Positions 2,273 through 35,520 of a DNA stretch of 64,000 nucleotides are shown here, piece by piece. Source of the DNA: a virus; UHGV virus genome UHGV-0038492; one strand, given 5' to 3'. The notes beneath the pieces were generated by a model. It was not told where the DNA came from and did no database searches. It saw only the letters and a list, made by a program, of their open reading frames with translations. Position numbers and translations under genes: made by a program. Position 1 is the first letter of the stretch. Every line of letters starts with the position of its first letter.

Positions 2273-2686
2273 ATGTACGACTTCAGTAACATCGAACCGG
2301 GTTCAATTGTAAACATCGTTTACGATACCCCGTTACGTGGTAACGAAACGCGAGTCCGTGTACTCGCATCAAAAGTGGGTTATGAGCTCGCTAAAAACTC
2401 AGGTGAAGATTTAGCCGCTATCCAGAAAAACATTTACTCGTCTTTGGTTGGTCAGCCGGTTAACGATTTGACCGCGTACAACTACATGTTGTTTAAGGAC
2501 TCCAGTAACCGCATCGGTGTCACTGCTGATGCTTGGGTACGTGAAGTTCGTGTGGTGAAAAGTCTCACTGCACGGTTTGTGGTTCAGTTAGACAACAAAC
2601 AAGAAAAAGACGATCTGGTAGCAGCGCTCAACGCACGCGGATTCAATGACGTCGAAATTGAAATCATTGAAAACGAAGCCGGTTAA
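2273..2686 (+). CDS. hypothetical protein
   Basis: 137-aa ORF with AAGGGTGA upstream; followed by terminator. Confidence 0.5.
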   Translation: MYDFSNIEPGSIVNIVYDTPLRGNETRVRVLASKVGYELAKNSGEDLAAIQKNIYSSLVGQPVNDLTAYNYMLFKDSSNRIGVTADAWVREVRVVKSLTARFVVQLDNKQEKDDLVAALNARGFNDVEIEIIENEAG

Positions 2687-2691
2687 AGTCA

Positions 2692-2730
2692 AGACCCTCT
2701 CTTCGGAGAGGGTTTATTTTTTTCTTTTTT
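2692..2730 (+). terminator. rho-independent terminator
   Basis: hairpin 'accctctcttcggagagggt' followed by T-run. Confidence 0.7.
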
Positions 2731-2783
2731 CACGTTACCTGCCATCCTTATAGCCGAGTTAAACTGCCTTTTCGAGGACAGCC

Positions 2784-5081
2784 GTGGAATACAATTCTCC
2801 TTTTCGTTTATCGGTAGACGAGTATCATCGTGATATCGATATTAACGATGCTTATCGTGAGCAGGTTGCGCTATACATTCACAACGTAACCGCACAAAAA
2901 TACCCTTTGGAATTATGTCGTAAAGAAGTTGACGAGATGTTGGCACCTGGTGGTGAATTATCAACCGAATCACCGTTGTGTAAGATGTGGGTGCGTAATC
3001 AAAAAACAGGAGACCGTGAAGAGAAATACACCACCGTTGATAAACTGTTTAAAACCGTAATTGATAAACAGATTATCTCCGCACCGTCATTAACCTTTTA
3101 TATCCCAGAACACATCAAACGTTCCAAGCTATCAGAATTCACTGCCGCTAACGTAGCTAAACGTGCAGCGGTGAAAAAAGAGATGTTTGCTGCCGAAGCA
3201 GCAGGTAATAGAGTTTTACAGATTAACAAAAAGAACGAACAGAACGCAGTCAAGACACTGAACAACGGGATGTCAGGCGCATTCTCTTCTCCATACACGA
3301 TCATCTTTAACCAATCGTCTCACTCTGTATTAACGTCAACCTGCCGTACTGCAACCTCATTCGGTAACGCAGGTAACGAACGTTTATTAGGCGGTAATCG
3401 TCATTATGACACACCGTCACGTATCATCGATCATTTCTTGTCCATCGGTACGTTAACCGATTGGGATAGCTTCAAGAAATGTATGGATACGTACGAGCTT
3501 CATTACCCAACCGTAGAAGAAGTGATGGATGTGATTCATTACTCTGCGGACTTCTACTTCAAGAACGAAGAGGGGATGGAGTTTGTCGAACACTATGTAT
3601 CAAATGTTTCTCCGCTCACTCGCGCGGCATTTGTTTACATGGGTGATTTTTATCATCTTGCGAAGTACAACGATCAGTTCATGCGCGGTTTTATTACCGC
3701 GTTGATTTCTCGCGAGATGATTGATGAAGTCGAAGACTGGGATGCTGCGGAAAAAACCATCGATGGTGACATGCAGATCATCATCTCCCAGTTCCGTACT
3801 GACGTGGTACCGATGGGTAAAGCATTCAGCCACGTTAAGAAACTCGACGATAAGAAAAAGCCATTGCCGTGGGATCAGCAGGACGACTACAAGGAACTGA
3901 TTCGTTCCGCACTGTTCTTACAGAAAACCATCGGTAAGTACGCACTTTTAATTCGTAATATCCTGACCACTAAAAACTTACCGATTAACATCGCAAGAAT
4001 GCCGGATGTGGTTCGTCGGGTAGGTGTGGTTTCAGATACCGACTCTACAATGATGACTGCACAATGGTGGGCGGTTTGGTATACCGGTAAGCATTACGGC
4101 GACGAAGCAACCCGTGTATCCAACGCAATGATTTATATTGCAACGCAGCACCTTCGTCACCTGATGGCGAGTATGTCTGCGAATATCGGTGTAGCGAAAG
4201 AACGCCTGTTCTTGTACGCGATGAAGAACGAATTTAAGTTCGATTCGTTTGCATTAACAACCAAAGCAAAACACTACTTCTCACTGATTACCGGTCAGGA
4301 AGGTCAGCTGAAAAAAGATCCCGAGCTGGAAGTAAAAGGAGTGTCTTTACGTACTTCGAACATTCCACCGATTATCATGAAGGAGTTTAAGAATACCATT
4401 AAAGGACTGTGTGAAGTCGTCGCACGCGGAGACCAGATTGAAATTATTCCGTTACTGGAAAAGGTTGCGCAGATCGAACACACCATTATGGATTCTATTC
4501 GTTCGGGTAATCCGGGTTATCTGAAAACAACGAACATTAAGGAACGTAGCGCTTATAACGAGAAGGACGAGAAAAACTATCACTACCATCGAATGTACAA
4601 CGCCATCTTTGGTCCGAAGTTTGGTCATCTGGAAGAACCGCCTTACGACGCTGTAAAACTACCGGTGGTTTTAGAAAACAAAACCAAGATTAAAGAGTGG
4701 TTGGACAGCATCGAAGATCCGATTATCCGAAACGGTGCAACCGCGTGGTTTGAGGAGAACAATTTCCGTAAATACAAAACGTTGATTCTGCCAGAGCACT
4801 TAGTAGAGAACTACGGTATTCCTAAAGAATTGATCGATATTGCGGACATTCGTCGCACGGCGTTCTCCACCGTAGAACCGTACTATCACATCCTTGAATG
4901 CTTAGGTGTGTTCATGATGGATAAGAACCGTATGCGTTTACTGTCGGATTTCTACGATAAAACTGCTGAAGACGATGGGCTGTATAAAGAGCTTGCGGAA
5001 GTACAGTATGTTAAGAAATCAGAAAGGGCAGGTGAGGATGATGAGGACGAAGATGAAGAAGAAACATTCGATGAAGAGTAA
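2784..5081 (+). CDS. large hypothetical protein with acidic C-terminus; weak candidate for the C-terminal half of a split family-B DNA polymerase
   Basis: 765-aa ORF, GTG start with GAGGA 5 nt upstream; contains 'VVSDTDS' (motif-C-like), 'KTLNNGMSGAF' (motif-B-like) and 'KAKHYF' (KKRY-like), but spacing is atypical; tail 'EDDEDEDEEETFDEE'. Confidence 0.5.
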   Translation: MEYNSPFRLSVDEYHRDIDINDAYREQVALYIHNVTAQKYPLELCRKEVDEMLAPGGELSTESPLCKMWVRNQKTGDREEKYTTVDKLFKTVIDKQIISAPSLTFYIPEHIKRSKLSEFTAANVAKRAAVKKEMFAAEAAGNRVLQINKKNEQNAVKTLNNGMSGAFSSPYTIIFNQSSHSVLTSTCRTATSFGNAGNERLLGGNRHYDTPSRIIDHFLSIGTLTDWDSFKKCMDTYELHYPTVEEVMDVIHYSADFYFKNEEGMEFVEHYVSNVSPLTRAAFVYMGDFYHLAKYNDQFMRGFITALISREMIDEVEDWDAAEKTIDGDMQIIISQFRTDVVPMGKAFSHVKKLDDKKKPLPWDQQDDYKELIRSALFLQKTIGKYALLIRNILTTKNLPINIARMPDVVRRVGVVSDTDSTMMTAQWWAVWYTGKHYGDEATRVSNAMIYIATQHLRHLMASMSANIGVAKERLFLYAMKNEFKFDSFALTTKAKHYFSLITGQEGQLKKDPELEVKGVSLRTSNIPPIIMKEFKNTIKGLCEVVARGDQIEIIPLLEKVAQIEHTIMDSIRSGNPGYLKTTNIKERSAYNEKDEKNYHYHRMYNAIFGPKFGHLEEPPYDAVKLPVVLENKTKIKEWLDSIEDPIIRNGATAWFEENNFRKYKTLILPEHLVENYGIPKELIDIADIRRTAFSTVEPYYHILECLGVFMMDKNRMRLLSDFYDKTAEDDGLYKELAEVQYVKKSERAGEDDEDEDEEETFDEE

Positions 5082-5236
5082 CCGTTCAGCGTTAGCCCCT
5101 AACGAATTGTGGTTTCGGTTAAAACCTGTGATTACAATCGATAACCAACCAGCTGACTTTAGTCGCGGTTGGTTAAGTCATGTAACGGGTAATAACGTTT
5201 TTGTTGAAGGTTACGTTTTGCGATAAAATAAAGAGG

Positions 5237-5262
5237 TAACGTTGCACATTTGTGCAACGTTA
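5237..5262 (-). terminator. perfect palindrome/hairpin in convergent intergenic region, possible terminator for the minus-strand gene
   Basis: 'taacgttgcaca ttt gtgcaacgtta'; T-rich tract follows on the minus strand. Confidence 0.4.
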
Positions 5263-5314
5263 TTACTCTATTATATGAGGATTCGAAAGAGTCCTCAGCG
5301 GGGGAGAGTAAGTC

Positions 5315-6376
5315 TTATTTTTCGAGTGCACTGTATAATGGCAGAATTAACTCGTGTCGGTAGTAGTTTCTTGCCGAGCGTGTGAGTTTCTCCAGAATCT
5401 TTGCATCCTCGAAACGGGCAATCCTTACCATCAGATTAGATTTGTATTTACCCATGCTCGCGTTGTCGTATTGCAGGCAGAACAATGCCCAATACCAGTT
5501 GACGATATTTCGATGCCAACTGCCCTGAATCGTCGAACCGGGTTCTTTAAACAGAATTCGATCCAACGCCGTGGACGGTTTGTGCGGGTCTTCAAAAATC
5601 TGAGGTATGTGAGCCATGACAACCGCAGGTAGTGGTTTACCAGCACGTAACGATTTTGAAATCGCTTTCGCGTGACGGATTGCTAAATCGCGTAGAGGTG
5701 GAGTAGGAATAACTCGTAACGGGTTTTCTTCTTCTATCTCTTTACCGAAGGCAATCGCACGATGGATATTTAAGAAAGCGATATCCATGTAACTGGGTAA
5801 CATCCTGTAGATGATGTGTCGCTGCGCATATACCAAGCGCGTGATGGGTTCTGGTTGTGTTCGGTAGTATTGTTCGGCAAGAACGTATTGCCACAGTAGT
5901 GCAACCAGATTTATCTCGATAATGCTGATCCCTCGGGGTTTGCCGTTACCGAGCGTCCAGTTAAGATTCGTGTATTCGTGATAAAGGTAAACCACCGGTG
6001 TGTAGTCACGGAATGAAAGATTAGGATCGACAGGTCTCGCAACTAACGAGATGATTTCATCCTGACCTTCTATAAAAGCGCCGTTAAAAACTTGACCATA
6101 CTCCCCCACAGAAGTTAAGCGTAGAGCGTTGCCGATATCTGACAGCTTTCGACGACAAGCCCATTCGATTTCTTCGTACGTGGGTTCACCGGCATAGCCG
6201 ATAGCTGCTAAGATTTTTAGGACGAGATGACCAGAACCAACGCTGGTTTGAATCGATTCTAAATAGTTGCGAATGCGCTGGTTATTATTTTTTACGGCAT
6301 TGACCAATTGTATAGCAGAAGGGTCTTCGTAGCGCCCCTTTATGACTGCTTGGTTTAACTCGGCTTGACTGAACAT
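5315..6376 (-). CDS. hypothetical protein
   Basis: minus-strand ORF; start moved to the ATG (MFSQAEL...) that has AAGGAG 6 nt upstream, instead of the track's 6400. Confidence 0.6.
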   Translation of the reverse strand: MFSQAELNQAVIKGRYEDPSAIQLVNAVKNNNQRIRNYLESIQTSVGSGHLVLKILAAIGYAGEPTYEEIEWACRRKLSDIGNALRLTSVGEYGQVFNGAFIEGQDEIISLVARPVDPNLSFRDYTPVVYLYHEYTNLNWTLGNGKPRGISIIEINLVALLWQYVLAEQYYRTQPEPITRLVYAQRHIIYRMLPSYMDIAFLNIHRAIAFGKEIEEENPLRVIPTPPLRDLAIRHAKAISKSLRAGKPLPAVVMAHIPQIFEDPHKPSTALDRILFKEPGSTIQGSWHRNIVNWYWALFCLQYDNASMGKYKSNLMVRIARFEDAKILEKLTRSARNYYRHELILPLYSALEK

Positions 6377-6427
6377 GACTGACTCCTTGGGGTTACACAT
6401 AGGAAACGGTCACATTCTACTCACATT

Positions 6428-6582: not shown

Positions 6583-8421
6583 ATGGCTAAAGAGTTTAAC
6601 GATATTCCTAACAACGTAAATGCTGGCGCTGCTGGTGTAGACCCGGCTCCGTCTTTTGGTGGTGTGGGTGCTGGTGCAAGCAGCGTGGATAACACCCACG
6701 CAGCAAATGCTTTCGGTGGTATGACTAAGAATATCTCCACCTTCGATAAAGCGTTCGGCTATATGTCCTACGTTTCTGCCGCTTCACATTTCACCGCACT
6801 GATTGCGAAGATGGTTGAACGTAACCCGTACCTGAGCAAATTCCGCTGCGGTGTTATCGACGGTGTGAATCCAGAAATGGGTTCTGCGGCATACGTTGCT
6901 GCGCCAGCAGATGAAAACGGCAGCCACTGGATGTACGGTATCCTGTTCTTCGAACACGGTCAGTCTGTACGCTTCCGTGAAATCAACGGTAAAGAAACTT
7001 ATTACACCCTGGCTTCTCTGTTTGGTCAGGATGGTGTAATGGATTCTATCACCAAACAAATCTGCGAACAGCAGAACCTGCCGTCTGTGCAATTCATGGT
7101 AATGAACTGCATTCCAGACCTGGGTAAAACGCTGACTGAAGAGTGGGCTATCCAGCTGATGGGTCAGCTGACTCTGGGTATCTTTGGCCGTATTCCGGGC
7201 TACCTGGGTCAGATGAAACTGACTCGTGGCGATCGCTTCGTTGCACAGGTAACTGCGGTAGACGAAGGTTCTCTGACTGACGTTAACGGTTCTGCACAAC
7301 GTGCTGACCTGATGGTTCAAGTTGAACACACTCAGACCGGTAGCTTCGATACCAACCCGACGCTGATGTCCTCTGAACGTGTTCAGGGTTATCCGAGCGT
7401 TGCGGGTGTGGGTTACATCAACCTGCGTTACACTGGTCGTCGTGCACCTGAAAATGGCGTACAGGATTACAAACAGCTGCAAGCAGAAGTTGTTGTTTCT
7501 CTGATGGACTCTCAGTCTTCCGGGGCTATGGTACCAATCGAACGTCAGCTGATTGAACTGGCTGCCTTCGCAGAAATCGCCGCTATCGGTGGCTGGCGTG
7601 AACGCTTCATGCACTCTCTCAACAAAACCGATCGTCGTTTCTCCCGCGTTATGGAATACGTAGAGTGGGGTGACAAACGTCCTGATCTGAGCAAAATCGA
7701 TGGCAACCGCGAAGCTATCGAAGAGTGCCTGAACATGTTCGCCTACCCAGAAGCTGCGCTGGTTGTGAACCATCGTGCTGGTAACGGCATCGGTGGTCTC
7801 TCCACGATGTTCAGTGAAGTTTCCCAGGGTAACACTGGTACACTGTCTAACATCCTGACCATCCTGGACAACATGGCTCCGAAAGGTGCTACGGTGTTCA
7901 CGCAGCGTTTCGCTGAAATGCTGAAAGTTAATACCATCACCTGCAACCACGTTGTTATCGCTGGCGTGCCGACTGTTTCCGGTCAGTATTTCAGCAACAG
8001 CCAGAAACGTAGCTTCCAGGATCAGGACCTGGTGTCTGTTCTGAGCAAAGTTGGTGATAACCAACACGATGCCTACACTTACCTGTACGCGCAATCTTAC
8101 TCACACCGTCAGTTCAACGCGACTGAACAGCGTCTGTACCTGCTGAAGCTGGCCGCTTCCCTGTTCGGCAGCAAACAGCCGGTCGTAACTGGCGAGTCCA
8201 CCGATTTGGCAATCAACCCGAAATTCGCCAAAGCGCTGCTGGACTACGTGCGTGATAACTGCATCTTCCAAGTGAATGGTGTTACCGCAGTCAATAGCCT
8301 GGCTAATACGTTGTTCTTCAACAACGGCGGTGAAAACTTCACTCTGTCTGGTAACGGCCCGAATTCCTTCGGCAGTGACTACAACATGTCATTCGCTTCC
8401 GGTAACTACAGCCCTATCTGA
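6583..8421 (+). CDS. abundant protein with Gly/Ala-rich N-terminal tail; candidate nuclear-shell (chimallin-like) or major virion protein
   Basis: 612 aa; strong RBS 'aaaggataaataaaATG'; strong host-like codon bias (CTG/CGT/GGT) giving a 436-aa stop-free antisense frame. Confidence 0.7.
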   Translation: MAKEFNDIPNNVNAGAAGVDPAPSFGGVGAGASSVDNTHAANAFGGMTKNISTFDKAFGYMSYVSAASHFTALIAKMVERNPYLSKFRCGVIDGVNPEMGSAAYVAAPADENGSHWMYGILFFEHGQSVRFREINGKETYYTLASLFGQDGVMDSITKQICEQQNLPSVQFMVMNCIPDLGKTLTEEWAIQLMGQLTLGIFGRIPGYLGQMKLTRGDRFVAQVTAVDEGSLTDVNGSAQRADLMVQVEHTQTGSFDTNPTLMSSERVQGYPSVAGVGYINLRYTGRRAPENGVQDYKQLQAEVVVSLMDSQSSGAMVPIERQLIELAAFAEIAAIGGWRERFMHSLNKTDRRFSRVMEYVEWGDKRPDLSKIDGNREAIEECLNMFAYPEAALVVNHRAGNGIGGLSTMFSEVSQGNTGTLSNILTILDNMAPKGATVFTQRFAEMLKVNTITCNHVVIAGVPTVSGQYFSNSQKRSFQDQDLVSVLSKVGDNQHDAYTYLYAQSYSHRQFNATEQRLYLLKLAASLFGSKQPVVTGESTDLAINPKFAKALLDYVRDNCIFQVNGVTAVNSLANTLFFNNGGENFTLSGNGPNSFGSDYNMSFASGNYSPI

Positions 8422-8509: not shown

Positions 8510-9877
8510 GTGAAAGACAGATTACAATACTTCGGTGTATCAGGGCGATTAATCAGTCACGATAAAATGTTACGTGACGCTTTCAAAGAGGCGGAGGAAA
8601 AGGGCTATAAACCGCCGATGATTATCAATGATGTTGCGAAATATAAAGACACCATTGAGACGTCAGAGTTGATTAACCGAATCTTACAGAACCGGATAGT
8701 CGACGAGACGCTAAATTCGGCACCTATTTGTAGTATTGATTGTGAAGCACCTATCGTTCATCGATATAATCTCGGTATGCGATGTCCTACCTGCGGCTAT
8801 GTGGTGACAGAACATCGTATTGTTTCAGAAGTCTGGATTCGTGCCCCGGAGGAAATAGGCAACTTTATTAACCCACGATTCTGGTCGATGTTTAATGCTT
8901 TCTTCGGTTCTAAACTTAAGAAGTTTAACCGAAACAAAGTGACCGTAGAACGTGGTTCTGATTTATTGATGTGGATGTTAGATCCGTGTTATAAACCTGA
9001 TAAAGACGAAGGTACTCGATCCCGAATAATCAAACGTATCTTTAGCGAGTATCAAGTTCCACGTGGTATTAGGAATTTTATTGACCATCATCGAACAATA
9101 TTCAATATCTTAACTTCTCCTGAAGTCTGGAAAGAAATTTATCCACCGACGAAAAATAACCGATATGAGAGCGAACGTACTCGCTTAGAGTGGAAAAAGT
9201 TCTTCGAAGAACAATCACACACTTTCTTTCCGGTTCATCTTCCAATCATTTCACCCAAACTGATCGTTACGGAGGAACGACGTCAGGGTATCTTTATCGA
9301 TCCTGTTTATACCAGTGCAATAGACGCGGTTAAGAACATCGCGTTACTTTATACCAATGCACGACGTATCCCAACGCATTTCATTATTAGTCGCGCATTG
9401 AAAGCAAATCGTCAGTTAGCGTACTTCTATATTGACCATCGTCAGGAGGTGATGGAAGGTAAACCTGGATTCTATCGTGCCAAATTAGGTTCAACACACA
9501 TCCCGTGGGGCGGTCGTGTAACAATCTCTCCAATCTCAGAACCACATGACGCTATGAAGGTTATTGCACCTTGGCGTTGGTTAGTGACGTTAGAATCTGT
9601 AGCTATTGAAAACAAACTCGGTCGACGGAACTTCACACCACGGCAGTGTGAACGTGTTATTGCATTTGCATCAATGCAGTACGTACCGTTGGTTCATGAA
9701 ATTATCAACGAACTTATTAAGGAGTCTCGTGGCGGTTACGGCCTGATGATATCAGCGCTACGAAACCCGACGCTTGTACAGTTGTCTATTCAGACATTAT
9801 TTATCTCAGCTGTTAACCCTGATGTTACACAGTGTTCGTTACGTATCTCCGATCGCGTCATCAAAGCTCCGAATGCT
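8510..9877 (+). CDS. RNA polymerase beta-prime subunit, N-terminal part, exon 1
   Basis: GTG start with GAGGA upstream; 'CPTCGY' zinc-finger-like element; 'RNPTLVQLSIQTLF...VIKAPNA' aligns to bacterial beta-prime 'NRAPTLHRLGIQAF...CAAYNA' immediately before the catalytic NADFDGD; exon end approximate. Confidence 0.7.
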
Positions 9878-10227
9878 AAAATTTGGCCCACTAGACGGGA
9901 AACCTCTAGTGCGTATCCCTCGAATTGCTGGGAACTCCTAAAGCTTACGATCCCGATAGGGTGGCGAAAGCCAGAAACAATTCGTAAGATAGCCTATGCT
10001 AACCAATAATGCTAAGGGTTGTGATAATGGATAACCAGCAGCGATGAAAATCGTTCAACGACTATCGAAAGGGTAAAACCGAGTAGAGTAGCTGCTTAGT
10101 TTAGCGGCGAAGTGGGGGAGACCTACGGGTAGCAATACCTACGGTTATGATATAGTCTGTGCCCATGTGAAAGCATGGGAGGGTGTCATTGCACACCTGC
10201 TCCAAAAGGAATGGAGTGGACAAACAG
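9878..10227 (+). ncRNA. group I self-splicing intron (no internal endonuclease ORF); boundaries approximate
   Basis: core elements in order: P 'gaattgctgggaa' (9922..9934), Q 'accagcagcg' (~10034), R 'gttcaacgactat' (10053..10065), S 'gatatagtc' (~10149); exon 1 ends in U, intron ends in G; downstream hairpins. Confidence 0.65.
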
Positions 10228-29622: not shown

Positions 29623-30474
29623 ATGATTGACATTTATACAGATTACGCCGCCGTTCTTACCGTCAATCGTTCGGAGGAACGTGCTGCACCGTTTCTGGAT
29701 TTAGTCACGCTTTGCATGGACTACGGATACGACGTTGCGTTAAGTGATGTGTACTGGCAACCGTCTTCTGACCCGGCAGACGAAACGGTTCGATTAGAAG
29801 GCATTATCGTTAAGTGTGCGGTAGCGTTAGGTAACCGTCTAGGGATAGCGTTAAATCCCCAGGAAGTTTACCATAAACCCAAAGAGACCGTACGTATTCT
29901 GGACGGTATTACTTCCAAGTTTGAAGAGTTTGAAGACACCGATACGCTTTACGGTATCGTGATGTCAGGCGAGACGCCGGAATACATTCTGGAAAGTATC
30001 TGTCGTTATGTTTACGGTGACGACAATATTCATTTCGAAGATTTGGTTGTTCGGGTGTCTCCTCGTGTAATGACCGTGATGAGAAACTACCTGTCTTCTG
30101 TGACCGTGGATGAACAATTAGCGGCAGGTAACGACAGACGTTTGTCTCGTATTGCTGATTACCTTCGTTTATATCCTCAAAACCCATCAGCATTTGTATT
30201 CCTTAACTTACCAGACCTGCCTGATTTGACCGTGGTTCAGCAGTCGCTGGTCTTCGATGTTGAAGACTACTCGGAAGCCGAGCTGTTGGAAATGTATGCA
30301 GTGGGCTTAACGATTATCGATAACGAGGATTACGAAGATGCGTATGGTGCGTTATCAGAGAACCTGGAGAAGCTCAACAACGAAGGGTTAAAACCTATTC
30401 CTATCTTGCAACCTGCTCTGGAAAGCTTGAAGGAGATTTATAAGGTGGCGGAGGAAGACAATGACGAGATTTGA
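29623..30474 (+). CDS. hypothetical acidic protein (start uncertain; track start 29587 lies in the terminator T-run)
   Basis: ATG at 29623; 3' end overlaps next gene. Confidence 0.45.
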   Translation: MIDIYTDYAAVLTVNRSEERAAPFLDLVTLCMDYGYDVALSDVYWQPSSDPADETVRLEGIIVKCAVALGNRLGIALNPQEVYHKPKETVRILDGITSKFEEFEDTDTLYGIVMSGETPEYILESICRYVYGDDNIHFEDLVVRVSPRVMTVMRNYLSSVTVDEQLAAGNDRRLSRIADYLRLYPQNPSAFVFLNLPDLPDLTVVQQSLVFDVEDYSEAELLEMYAVGLTIIDNEDYEDAYGALSENLEKLNNEGLKPIPILQPALESLKEIYKVAEEDNDEI

Positions 30475-31762
30475 GTTTCTGGTGGCGGCGTGTAAAGCCG
30501 AAGCCTGGCGTCGTTTAGTGTGGCGTATTGCAATATTCAACATGTCAGTGTTCCCGTCGAATCGTGAAGAACCTGAAGCGTTCGATATTACGTATATTGA
30601 CGGAATGCCGCACTACTACGCGGTAGAAGATGGGAAAGGAGATTGGCAGCCCATTACTGATGGCGTGAAAGACCAAGAACTGTTTATTCCTGAAGAACAG
30701 TTTGAGTTGAAAGTCGACGACTACCCAGGATTAGAAGGACCGATTCCTACTACCGTAGGGCGTTATATCTTTAACTGGGTTGTTATCTGGTATGCGTTTG
30801 GTACACGCTTGCCGTATATGGGTATTTCACAAAACCCGTTAGAGTATCGTAAAGAGATGCACCGTCGTTGTTTGGATCACGAAACCGATGAACCTGAGAA
30901 CGAAGGTGCTATTCGTCCGAGCATGATAGAACGCTTTGTAAGCGGTTTACACGAGCTTGCACCGTTAACCGCTGGTATTGCACCAACAGGTACACTTAGA
31001 AGCCTTACAGTGCATCCTGATGCGTATAAAATACGTGATGCGTTGCTATTAAAGCATAAGGACGAGTTAGACGACCCAGCGGTGATTGTTAAGATAGAAA
31101 AAGCACTGGACGAACTGGATAAACAGTGGTTGTCGGGTGACCAATCTATCGAGTTCTATAACTCACCGAAATCACGAATGCGTCGACGTAAGTTGATGCT
31201 GATGTACGGGATTGAATCGTCTTTCCAGGAAGGGGGTAACTATACGTTAATTCCTAACGCATTGGTGGAAGTCGATAAAGCGGGAATGGATAATCTGGTC
31301 GCGAAGTTTAACTCTATTCGTGAAGGTTCGTTCTCGCGTGGTGCGGAAACCGCGAAAGGTGGGGAACAGGTACGTATCATTCAGATGATTTTCCAGAACC
31401 ACCGAATCGTTACAGGTGACTGCGGGACGAAACTCACGCACCCTGTGGTTATCACAAAAGACAACGTAAAACGTTACGTTGGGATGAACGCGATGGTTAA
31501 TGGGAAACTAACCTCCCTGACGGAAGAGTTTTTGAATAGTCAGCTAGGGAAAGTTGTGCGCCTACGCCGACCCATCTTATGTCAATACGGCCACATCGAC
31601 TGCTGTACTGCGTGCTCCTCCGAAGCGAAAGGTGAAGAACCTCGCGCTATCGCAGCGGATATTTCGTCAGCGTTTTCTAACGTTATGTCCGTGGCAATGG
31701 CCGCAATGCACGGTAAAGAAACCGTCGTTCACGAATACGATCCGTTGATCCATATCACCTAA
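30461..31762 (+). CDS. second RNA polymerase beta-prime C-terminal-like protein
   Basis: 'RGAETAKGGEQ...TGDCGT' and 'ILCQYGHIDCCTACSSEAKGE' parallel the bridge-helix and C..YG..C..C elements seen in 22407..24506; GGAGGAAG upstream of ATG. Confidence 0.5.
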   Translation: MTRFEFLVAACKAEAWRRLVWRIAIFNMSVFPSNREEPEAFDITYIDGMPHYYAVEDGKGDWQPITDGVKDQELFIPEEQFELKVDDYPGLEGPIPTTVGRYIFNWVVIWYAFGTRLPYMGISQNPLEYRKEMHRRCLDHETDEPENEGAIRPSMIERFVSGLHELAPLTAGIAPTGTLRSLTVHPDAYKIRDALLLKHKDELDDPAVIVKIEKALDELDKQWLSGDQSIEFYNSPKSRMRRRKLMLMYGIESSFQEGGNYTLIPNALVEVDKAGMDNLVAKFNSIREGSFSRGAETAKGGEQVRIIQMIFQNHRIVTGDCGTKLTHPVVITKDNVKRYVGMNAMVNGKLTSLTEEFLNSQLGKVVRLRRPILCQYGHIDCCTACSSEAKGEEPRAIAADISSAFSNVMSVAMAAMHGKETVVHEYDPLIHIT

Positions 31763-32332: not shown

Positions 32333-34114
32333 TTAGTGAGTGGTTTTGATGTATTCAAACGGATCGGTAACGGTTTCTCCCTGACGACGTAAGAATGCTT
32401 CTAACACAACGTTCTTATCCGGCAGTAAGAAGAAGTCCGTTGCGATTTCCATTGCATTAACACGCCCTGCGGTAAGGTTAATCCCTACACGACGACGTAC
32501 TTCTTCAGGAACACCATGAATACTCAGCAACTCGATTAACGTTGTTTCACGAGACTGGTTCATCATGTTCGTTGCAGAAGGATACGCCTGGGTTAAGTCC
32601 GCATCTGCGGTTTGCCCACGGAAAGCAGTGTAGAAATCATCAAACTCTTTAATGATTCCTCGCAGACCGTTTTCTGCGTTCATACACGCAGTTAACGTAA
32701 CAATCCAACCGTCCGTACCGATAACTTCTTCATCGAAATCATTACGCATTGCACTACCTACACAACCGATAACCAATCCTTGTTCATAAAGGTAATAGGT
32801 GTAAGCAATACAAATACGTTTTGGTAACGAAGGGAAGATATCGTACATCGAATAACCTGCCAGTACGGAAATTGCCGAAGACAAGTCGTTCGTCTTTTTA
32901 TCCAACAACACAATCATCAGGTTATCGAAGATGTTATAAACGCAGTATTCGAGCGGGAACTCTTTCTGTGCTTTTAAGTGCCATTCCAGTTTCTCCTCGT
33001 AAGGCAACTCTGGCAAGTCTAACTTGTTTAAGCCCAGTTCGGTTTCCAGAATAGCGTTAAGTTTGTAAGAAGGACGTTGGCCTTCGTGAACACGCAGTGA
33101 ACGAAATAGACACATTGCATCCACACAGTAGAACGATGCGGTACAATAAAGTACGTGCCACTGTTGTGAAGGTGCTTTGGTCAGTGATTTCGATTCCGTT
33201 TTCTTCGATGCTTCGTCTTTCTTGAAGTAAACACGACGGTATTGTTTCGGTACATCAGGATGGCAAAAGACGTCTTCTGGTGGAATCCCTGCGGCTTCCA
33301 GTGCTTCTAACATGCGTGAAATATCGAACTCGTGGTTCCATGCAACTAATAAGTCAGGTAGACGAGGGTGAATCTCTTCAAACATGCGTTGAATACAGCA
33401 GCCAGAGTTTAAGCATTCGTAAACGAAGATTTTATATCCGTCGATAACGTCTTTGATTTCAGTCTTAGGATTGCCTTCTTTGTCTTTGCCACGAAAAGCA
33501 ATTTTAGAAAGTAACTCCTTCGCACGTTTAATTAGTCGCGCTTCGAAGTTCTCACGGCCACAACGCGCAACGTAGTCTTTCGTTGCGAAGAAATGAATTT
33601 CGTCATCCAAAACAAAACTCATAATCCAAGGGTCTCGAGATTTGTCTTCTTCTCGAGTTTCCACGTCGTATACACAAATACGGTTAGGTGAAACGGCGTT
33701 AGGCCATTTCTTTACATACCTTTCTTTAATCCAGCTGGTGATAGGTAAGTCAGCCCAGTATACGTACGGAGAGGTACAGACTTGGCGTAATGAACGTTTT
33801 TTGTCAGGAAATCTTGCCCCTAGACCCATCTGGATAGTTTGTGACATCATCACATCCGTGGTCATGTATTCCTGACACTTACTGCGTTCTTCGTATTCTT
33901 TCTTTTCTTGATGGTTACGGTGTTGTGGTAAAGTAATGTAGATAGGCCGTTTCAGATTTTCACGCATGACGATACGCGGGATGAATCTGCCATCTTTAGT
34001 ATGGACGACCTCCTTTATGAGCACGAAGTCGTTTTCTTTCTGCTGATCGGTTGCGTACGAAACAAATTTGCACTCTTTGGCAATAACGTCTTCCGGTGCG
34101 TAATAGTTATTCAT
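32333..34114 (-). CDS. family-B DNA polymerase, N-terminal fragment (3'-5' exonuclease domain plus motif A)
   Basis: Exo I 'YDVET', Exo II 'WNHEFD', Exo III 'YNIFD', motif A-like 'DADLTQAYPSA'; ORF ends ~70 aa after motif A with no motif B or C; start set at MNNYY (track start 34249). Confidence 0.55.
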   Translation of the reverse strand: MNNYYAPEDVIAKECKFVSYATDQQKENDFVLIKEVVHTKDGRFIPRIVMRENLKRPIYITLPQHRNHQEKKEYEERSKCQEYMTTDVMMSQTIQMGLGARFPDKKRSLRQVCTSPYVYWADLPITSWIKERYVKKWPNAVSPNRICVYDVETREEDKSRDPWIMSFVLDDEIHFFATKDYVARCGRENFEARLIKRAKELLSKIAFRGKDKEGNPKTEIKDVIDGYKIFVYECLNSGCCIQRMFEEIHPRLPDLLVAWNHEFDISRMLEALEAAGIPPEDVFCHPDVPKQYRRVYFKKDEASKKTESKSLTKAPSQQWHVLYCTASFYCVDAMCLFRSLRVHEGQRPSYKLNAILETELGLNKLDLPELPYEEKLEWHLKAQKEFPLEYCVYNIFDNLMIVLLDKKTNDLSSAISVLAGYSMYDIFPSLPKRICIAYTYYLYEQGLVIGCVGSAMRNDFDEEVIGTDGWIVTLTACMNAENGLRGIIKEFDDFYTAFRGQTADADLTQAYPSATNMMNQSRETTLIELLSIHGVPEEVRRRVGINLTAGRVNAMEIATDFFLLPDKNVVLEAFLRRQGETVTDPFEYIKTTH

Positions 34115-34185
34115 GTTTTCACTCTCAAATCTAGCGGCTGCTATACTGATTTGTGGGTAATGTAATTTCTCAAAAGGAAACACAA

Positions 34186-35520
34186 ATGGGATACTGGCAA
34201 AATCACATTGCATCAGTTGCGGATGCAAAGGTTGTAGCCGCAGAATCAATTAAATTCCAAGATAAAAAGAAACTCGCAGAACTGGCAGACATTATTGCTA
34301 AATTTCGTGCAGCCGGAGACTTCAGTCCGGCCGGTTACGAGAGTTCTGGCGTTTCTGATTGGGTATTTAAAACCAACGGCATTAGCATTAACTTTAAGAA
34401 CGGTAGCGAACTCGGATTATTCGACGTTGCCTTCGCAGGTGTAGAACCGCCTAAACTGGACGCGAACAGTCCGGTCATTGCGTCAATGGCGCGTGCACTG
34501 TACGCAGGCAATAAAGACCTGGATATGTACAGTAAGTTTATTAAAGAAAACGAACTGAACAGCACCATTGACGATTCCAGTGCGAAAATCAGCGGTGATT
34601 TAAGCAAAGTCGCTTCCCCGCTCTATCTGACTCCGGTGTTGTTAGAGAAGCTGGAGCTGACCGATTTGGAGGTTGCTGCGGTAATCCTTCACGAAGTCGG
34701 GCACGTTTATTATTACTTCCGTACGCTGATGCGAACCGTGGTAACGGATTTACTGGCAGACGCTGCGGCTAACCGTATCATGGAAAGCGAAGACCCAGCT
34801 GTTCGTTTACGTGTGGTTAAAGACGTTGAACGAATGCTGAACACGAAAGTGAATCAGCCTGAGACCATCTGCACTGAGTACAAGAAAGAAAACGTCTACA
34901 TGCATCTGGTAACAGATTTGCTGTTAGACCGTCCGTTCATTACCGGTAGTCAAGGCTTTGCAAACCGTACCTGGGAACGTGCTGCTGACGACTTCGCTGC
35001 CCGTTTTGGTGCGGCCCCGTACTTAGCTTCTGCGCTGTACAAAATGGAAACCAGCCCGTTCTATCTACTGCGTAACTCGTCGTATATGAACATGGGCGTC
35101 CACCTGACGATTGAGTTGTTCCGTGTGACTGCGCTGATTGCTCAAGCCGCCATTCCGATTCTTCCGGTTATCTCTGTTACGTTCGGGATGATTCTGAACG
35201 ACCCAGATAACACCATCTACGATCCGCCGCAGGAACGTTTTGAAGCGATGCGTCGTACGCTGGTAGAAGAACTGAATACCATCAAAGACAAAAACACGAA
35301 AGCGGCTAACGAGCAACGTAAACGTATTCTGGATGGTATCGCGGTAATTGACCGAATTCTCCTTACGGTTAAAGACAAAGATAACCTGTATCAGTTTATC
35401 TGGAAGACGCTGACACCGAAAGGGCGTCGTGACCGTGCTGCGGTGGATTATCAGCGCGCTATCGGGAAGTATATGTCGAATGACCTCCGTATCGCATCTG
35501 CCATGTTTAACGTCGATTAA
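34186..35520 (+). CDS. hypothetical protein
   Basis: start moved to ATG with AAAGGAAA upstream (track start 34153 is GTG). Confidence 0.55.
   Translation: MGYWQNHIASVADAKVVAAESIKFQDKKKLAELADIIAKFRAAGDFSPAGYESSGVSDWVFKTNGISINFKNGSELGLFDVAFAGVEPPKLDANSPVIASMARALYAGNKDLDMYSKFIKENELNSTIDDSSAKISGDLSKVASPLYLTPVLLEKLELTDLEVAAVILHEVGHVYYYFRTLMRTVVTDLLADAAANRIMESEDPAVRLRVVKDVERMLNTKVNQPETICTEYKKENVYMHLVTDLLLDRPFITGSQGFANRTWERAADDFAARFGAAPYLASALYKMETSPFYLLRNSSYMNMGVHLTIELFRVTALIAQAAIPILPVISVTFGMILNDPDNTIYDPPQERFEAMRRTLVEELNTIKDKNTKAANEQRKRILDGIAVIDRILLTVKDKDNLYQFIWKTLTPKGRRDRAAVDYQRAIGKYMSNDLRIASAMFNVD

Follow-up and report, generated by a model that had tools for sequence, protein, structure and literature searches.

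The open reading frame (ORF) at 2784..5081 on the plus strand of the analysed stretch of UHGV virus genome UHGV-0038492 (64,000 nucleotides, hereafter the window) almost certainly encodes DNAP-C, one chain of the two-chain replicative family-B DNA polymerase (PolB) of a chimallivirus. Chimalliviruses are PhiKZ-like jumbo phages that form a nucleus, and this one belongs to the SPN3US/Asesino lineage. The other chain, DNAP-N, is encoded at 32333..34114. The ORF belongs to a known family of divergent polymerases, both chains are orthologs of PhiKZ proteins, their catalytic residues are conserved, DNAP-C has a B-family fold, and the two genes occur together. A first-pass annotation made from the sequence alone had tentatively proposed the ORF as the missing half of a split polymerase. 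This proposal is borne out by a profile match over the whole protein, orthology to PhiKZ gp50, and the predicted fold. The window is assigned to a chimallivirus of the SPN3US/Asesino lineage because of its homologs and a gene order of the PhiKZ gp49-gp55 type.

Family membership and homologs of DNAP-C

PF20286, the Pfam family "Divergent Family B DNA polymerase" (divDNApol), matches DNAP-C end to end with an E-value of 8.9e-285. The score is 946.8 bits against a cutoff of 25.7 bits, and residues 11-724 correspond to profile positions 3-705 of 705. DNAP-C also matches phrog_2927, annotated as 'DNA polymerase', and is colinear with PhiKZ gp50 at 35% identity (residues 5-724 against 8-731, E 1e-153). 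A profile search of 1.84 billion representative proteins returned 698 clusters at E<=1e-30. Among the best 150 of these 698, lengths are mostly 700-780 amino acids (aa), apart from a few outliers of 545-967 aa, and the alignments begin at profile positions 2-19. None of these 150 representatives bears an N-terminal extension of DNAP-N size or a fusion to the exonuclease half. The protein cluster closest to DNAP-C (93%) is known from metagenome and run assemblies only. No phage record reaches 90% protein identity, and the best band is 80-90%.

Two family members have additional domains. In the metagenomic homolog P0168 (967 aa), PF02739 and PF09293 (residues 29-256) precede divDNApol (265-967), and this N-terminal domain is of the 5'-3' exonuclease type, as in flap endonuclease (FEN) and T4 RNase H. 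If it is not a gene-call artefact, the fusion may be a 'Rosetta stone' that links the polymerase to primer or flap removal. P0261 carries DUF4326 at its C-terminus, which is a candidate fusion that could likewise be a gene-call artefact.

Gene model and catalytic motifs of DNAP-C

The DNAP-C gene encodes 765 aa from a GTG start, and a Shine-Dalgarno ribosome-binding site, GAGGA, can be read at 2774..2778, 5 nt upstream of the GTG. The start agrees with the N-termini of the homologs, which share the same MEYNSPFRL. All features of DNAP-C given below lie on the plus strand.

The three motifs that the first-pass annotation had named (VVSDTDS, KTLNNGMSGAF and KAKHYF) are all present in the protein, and their core residues are invariant in an alignment of 44 homologs that extends down to 34% identity. 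KTLNNGMSGAF starts at residue 157 and contains motif B, K157-TLNNGMS-G165 (3252..3278), in which the Tyr of the canonical KxxxNSxYG is replaced by Ser. Motif B falls within the region matched by the generic PolB profile PF00136. Motif C, VVSDTDS (residues 415-421, 4026..4046), aligns to VISDTDS of PhiKZ, and its D420 corresponds to PhiKZ D426 and to D623 of the RB69 polymerase, gp43. KAKHYF (residues 494-499, 4263..4280) is a KxY motif of the KKRY type, which both hhalign and phmmer align to the RB69 KKRY, so that K496/Y498 correspond to RB69 K706/Y708. The invariant positions include K157, N161, S164, G165, S417-T422, K496, H497, and Y498. R127 and K131, in the first finger helix (3162..3176), are also invariant in the 44 homologs and, judging from the motif pattern, are probably the counterpart of the RxxxK triphosphate-binding pair (RB69 R482/K486).

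In the six frames of the window, ORF pieces of 40 aa or more comprise 58,628 residues, and the only DTDS and the only K...N[SGA].[YSF]G pattern among them lie in ORF 2784..5081. No other ORF in these pieces supplies motifs B and C. Because DTDS and the motif B pattern are unique in this set and the core residues of all three motifs are invariant in the 44 homologs, their occurrence in the ORF is not a matter of chance. In contrast, a motif A pattern was found in DNAP-C neither by eye nor by regular expression.

The longer-than-usual motif spacing, which had made the original assignment tentative, holds for one interval and not for the other. Motifs B and C are 261 aa apart (K157 to D418), compared with 61 aa in RB69 (K560 to D621), whereas the interval between motif C and KxY is normal, with 76 aa against 83 aa in RB69. 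The long interval is due to a 211-aa segment of a palm-insertion domain.

The partner chain DNAP-N and the pairing of the two genes

The DNAP-N gene (32333..34114, minus strand) encodes 593 aa from an ATG at 34114, which contain an N-terminal domain, a 3'-5' exonuclease, and the beginning of the palm, including motif A. Its product matches phrog_3011, 'DNA polymerase', with an E-value of 3e-252 and is the ortholog of PhiKZ gp82, to which it aligns at 35% identity in two blocks that skip a little-finger insert. The fragment does stop after motif A, as had been noticed: DADLTQAYPS (compare DLTSLYPS in RB69) occupies residues 504-513 (32576..32605, minus strand), 80 residues before the C-terminus, and its D506 corresponds to PhiKZ DNAP-N D562 and RB69 D411. 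The exonuclease motifs, on the same strand, are Exo I, D150-V-E152 (33659..33667, equivalent to PhiKZ D151/E153), Exo II, NHEFD264 (33323..33337, PhiKZ D251), and Exo III, Y393-NIF-D397 (32924..32938, PhiKZ D452). All four acidic residues of the exonuclease and the motif A Asp are therefore present. A TTG at 34249 was considered as an alternative start and rejected, since a gene starting there would extend into the divergent neighbour at 34153, and the alignments to the PHROG and to the PhiKZ protein each begin close to the ATG at 34114.

The two genes co-occur strictly. A tblastn search over phage records gave 304 records with the C chain and 302 with the N chain, and the counts by genus nearly coincide (for example Pseudomonas 81/81, Erwinia 62/62, and Vibrio 23/23 for C and N, respectively). 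In the window, the DNAP-N gene lies about 29.5 kb from the DNAP-C gene on the opposite strand. Phages of the PhiKZ type match the window DNAP-N in two pieces in this search, because the window protein is without the little-finger insert of about 65 aa.

Domain layout and assembly of the polymerase

A 'split subunit DNA polymerase' in PhiKZ-related phages was recognised in 2012, first in phage OBP; that of SPN3US consists of gp18 and gp44 (PMC5694885, PMC5105663). Iyer et al. (2021) defined the divergent PolB clade with its long helical insert and SH3 neighbour (PMC7824862). Basu et al. (bioRxiv 2026) obtained a purified, stable 1:1 complex of PhiKZ gp82 with gp50 and determined its structure by cryo-electron microscopy (cryo-EM) at 2.1 Å (PMC13648687; the authors list PDB 9N52). 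RB69 is the closest match to this structure, and one chain gives way to the other within a 'palm insertion' domain composed of DNAP-N 589-638 and DNAP-C 1-98 and 221-419. The polymerase site is formed by D562 of the N chain (motif A) and D426 of the C chain (motif C), and the mutation D562A in DNAP-N abolishes synthesis. The enzyme is active in vitro, its chains are described as 'extensively interdigitated', and a third protein, Rhc, which has an RNase H and a clamp-like domain, binds the thumb and raises activity (PMC13648687).

The domain limits given for PhiKZ in that study were mapped onto DNAP-C through the gp50 alignment. Residues 1-94 (2784..3065, PhiKZ DNAP-C 1-98) are the second of the three segments of the palm-insertion domain and form helices and a hairpin in an AlphaFold (AF2) model. 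Residues 95-202 (3066..3389, PhiKZ 99-220) are the fingers, with two long antiparallel helices (115-139 and 143-168) in the model. The third and largest segment of the helical palm insertion, residues 203-413 (3390..4022), is aligned to PhiKZ 221-419 and is all-helical, with a predicted local distance difference test (pLDDT) mostly of 84-98. The rest of the palm and the thumb follow in residues 414-724 (4023..4955), which end in the family-conserved ...LLSDFY. The closest structural matches of the single-chain model as a whole (pLDDT 87) are the polymerases of RB69 and HSV-1 and Pol alpha, RB69 being the best, and the fingers, palm, and thumb of the model fold like those of solved PolB enzymes. 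The palm and thumb fold that the initial proposal called for is thus present in the model.

The active site is built from two chains, because the motif A Asp is on DNAP-N and the motif C Asp is on DNAP-C. In the proposed mechanism, DNAP-C would supply the fingers, in which R127, K131, and the motif B residues K157/N161 would bind the incoming deoxynucleoside triphosphate. It would also supply the metal-binding D418/D420 of motif C, the primer-binding KxY (K496/Y498), and the thumb. DNAP-C alone would be unable to catalyse polymerisation, as motif A D506 and the whole 3'-5' proofreading exonuclease are on DNAP-N. The chain break is predicted to fall inside the lineage-specific helical palm insertion, where the C-terminal 60 or so residues of DNAP-N and residues 1-94 and 203-413 of DNAP-C would fold together as one domain and lock a 1:1 heterodimer. 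By homology to PhiKZ, the two chains may be expected to assemble physically, to have polymerase and exonuclease activity, and to be stimulated by Rhc.

Evaluation of alternative explanations

No result contradicts the identification of DNAP-C as a chain of a split PolB, but several caveats apply. The generic PolB profile PF00136 matches only residues 89-189, which contain fingers and motif B, with 21.5 bits (E 1.1e-4) against a gathering score of 23 bits. The profile search suggested in the first-pass annotation therefore gave a full-length result with the divergent family and a result just below threshold with the generic one; a precomputed PF00136 match is present in several close homologs of DNAP-C. 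A sequence comparison with PDB chains, which held no solved structure of this family, found nothing meaningful, the best match being a lipoxygenase with an E-value of 0.071. When RB69 gp43 was compared by phmmer with the six-frame ORF pieces, both polymerase fragments ranked 1 and 2 of 646 with non-significant E-values of 0.49 and 1.2, and the ranking is for that reason taken as corroboration only. The hhalign comparison of the family alignment with RB69 gp43 gave 27% probability and covered only KxY and the region at the start of the thumb. In the single-chain AF2 model, confidence drops locally at the motif C hairpin (pLDDT about 79-82), which is not drawn as strands, plausibly because the partner strand on DNAP-N is missing. 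Finally, no Rhc homolog was found by phmmer with PhiKZ gp155 in the 64-kb window, which spans about a quarter of a genome of approximately 240 kb, so the rhc gene may lie outside it.

The arrangement described in a 2021 comparative-genomics paper is different: ORF 2784..5081 would be self-sufficient, and the product of 32333..34114 would be a free-standing, loosely associated proofreading exonuclease. This is hardly credible here, because neither inspection by eye nor the regular expression found a motif A pattern in DNAP-C and DADLTQAYPS is on the other chain. The residues that precede the fingers, 1-94, correspond to PhiKZ 1-98 and hence to the palm insertion, not to a catalytic strand. The loss of polymerase activity in PhiKZ DNAP-N D562A and the interdigitation of the PhiKZ chains also argue against a loose association (PMC13648687). 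It is even more improbable that the ORF encodes a degenerate, dead polymerase paralog with a structural or regulatory role. The strong divergence from canonical PolB, seen in the sub-threshold PF00136 match, the lack of sequence matches in the PDB, and the Tyr to Ser change in motif B, would agree with such a role. However, every catalytic or substrate-binding position tested is invariant throughout the family, and S164 is a family-wide residue and not a sign of local decay. In addition, the ORF encodes the sole PolB palm and thumb in the window, and the orthologous PhiKZ enzyme is active. The two-chain polymerase of DNAP-C and DNAP-N remains the preferred explanation.

Comparison with related polymerases

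The window polymerase and PhiKZ gp50/gp82 have the same split point, with both chains colinear. They share the distribution of the motif A and motif C Asp residues over the N and C chains, the four acidic residues of the exonuclease, the palm-insertion domain with its three segments, and a neighbourhood of SH3-fold protein, polymerase, gp52-like gene, shell-position gene, and RNA polymerase beta gene. They differ in that the window DNAP-N is without the Y-family-like 'little finger' (PhiKZ 350-415; the alignment skips 353-416), DNAP-C has an extra acidic C-terminal tail of 41 aa, and the Rhc partner was not found in the window. The little-finger insert is restricted to some Pseudomonas phages (PMC13648687).

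The nearest phage records are Erwinia phage Asesino and the SPN3US-like Salmonella phages. To Asesino, the DNAP-C gene has 75% nucleotide identity, and its product has 80% protein identity to gp35, a RefSeq 'DNA polymerase'. Asesino and the SPN3US-like Salmonella phages have about 80% aa identity to DNAP-C and about 76-81% to DNAP-N. They also share the gene order, the opposite-strand separation of approximately 30 kb, and the acidic tail, whereas the window genome differs from them at the species level.

RB69/T4 gp43 has motifs A, B, and C, KKRY, and Exo I-III in common with the window enzyme, as well as the spacing of motif C and KxY, and it is the best structural match. In contrast, it is one chain of 903 aa with longer fingers, no palm insertion, and the gp45 ring clamp, and its pairwise sequence similarity to the window DNAP-C is undetectable. 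PolB enzymes in general carry motifs A, B, and C on one polypeptide, and the location of motif A on a separate DNAP-N chain is a known peculiarity of the split subfamily.

The acidic C-terminal tail

Beyond ...LLSDFY, DNAP-C ends in the clade-specific acidic tail, '...YVKKSERAGEDDEDEDEEETFDEE' (residues 725-765, 4956..5078, plus strand), which is predicted to be disordered and contains 20 D/E and 5 K/R. Residues 751-765 have a pLDDT below 50 in the AF2 model. Similar acidic tails of 34-42 aa are found in the SPN3US/Asesino-like relatives P0001-P0015, and the tail is absent from PhiKZ gp50 and from most of the distant family members. In T7 and T4, replication proteins have acidic tails with an interaction role, which serve as a model for that of DNAP-C. 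On this model, the 35-41-aa tail of the SPN3US/Asesino clade could conceivably be an extra interaction module, for example for docking on the Rhc clamp domain, at its basic face that binds DNA, or on the single-stranded DNA-binding protein or helicase, a proposal that is rather unlikely at present.

Genome neighbourhood

The gene order around DNAP-C follows that of PhiKZ gp49-gp55, with the SH3-fold protein (SH3DP), the polymerase, a minus-strand gp52-like gene, a 612-aa protein at the shell position, and an RNA polymerase beta fragment. The SH3DP gene (2273..2686, plus strand, 137 aa), which lies upstream of the polymerase gene as a conserved neighbour in this family (PMC7824862), is at the position of PhiKZ gp49, and its product matches PF20287, 'SH3 fold domain associated with phage DNA polymerases' (E 8.2e-29), with weak similarity to gp49 (E 9e-5). 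Searches of the window by phmmer with PhiKZ gp155, gp49, and gp54 gave nothing at E<0.01, and SH3DP was recovered by the Pfam profile only. SH3DP goes unmentioned in the preprint on the PhiKZ structure (PMC13648687).

A strong terminator-like hairpin followed by a T-run lies between the SH3DP and polymerase genes (2692..2715, plus strand). A perfect hairpin with a 13-bp stem (5235..5264) separates the polymerase gene from the convergent minus-strand gene 5315..6400; it is terminator-like on both strands and looks like a bidirectional terminator. PhiKZ-like phages transcribe with their own RNA polymerases. A sigma-70 promoter scan was at background, with 8 found against 7.9 expected, and for both of these reasons it carries no weight.

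ORF 6583..8421 (612 aa) occupies the position of the PhiKZ nuclear-shell protein gp54 (chimallin) and of Asesino gp39, and matches phrog_8316 (E 5e-243). BLASTP against PhiKZ gp54 was not significant (E 0.075), so the shell-protein label comes from synteny and the phrog_8316 match. In the antisense direction, the long ORF 6784..8094 (436 aa) is probably spurious. The ORFs 8510..10009 (phrog_2987, E 5e-137) and 30461..31762 (phrog_2962, E 5e-169) encode beta-subunit fragments of a multisubunit phage RNA polymerase, as expected in a PhiKZ-like genome. ORF 34153..35520, which is divergent from DNAP-N, matches phrog_2767 (E 2e-151) and has a weak, sub-threshold Peptidase_M48 match around 'AAVILHEVGHVYYY', a motif of the HEVGH type, a hint that the product is a zinc metalloprotease.

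Implications

The split polymerase has been known since 2012, its C chain has a Pfam family, and a cryo-EM preprint on the PhiKZ enzyme appeared in 2026. DNAP-C of the window is an ordinary ortholog within this family and adds nothing scientifically new. If the acidic tail does act as an interaction module, it would mean, together with SH3DP, that the SPN3US/Asesino clade has a replisome with contacts or subunits additional to those of the three-protein PhiKZ enzyme. For annotation, 2784..5081 and 32333..34114 should be named as subunits C and N of a single DNA polymerase, and not 'hypothetical protein' or a 'polymerase' and an 'exonuclease'.
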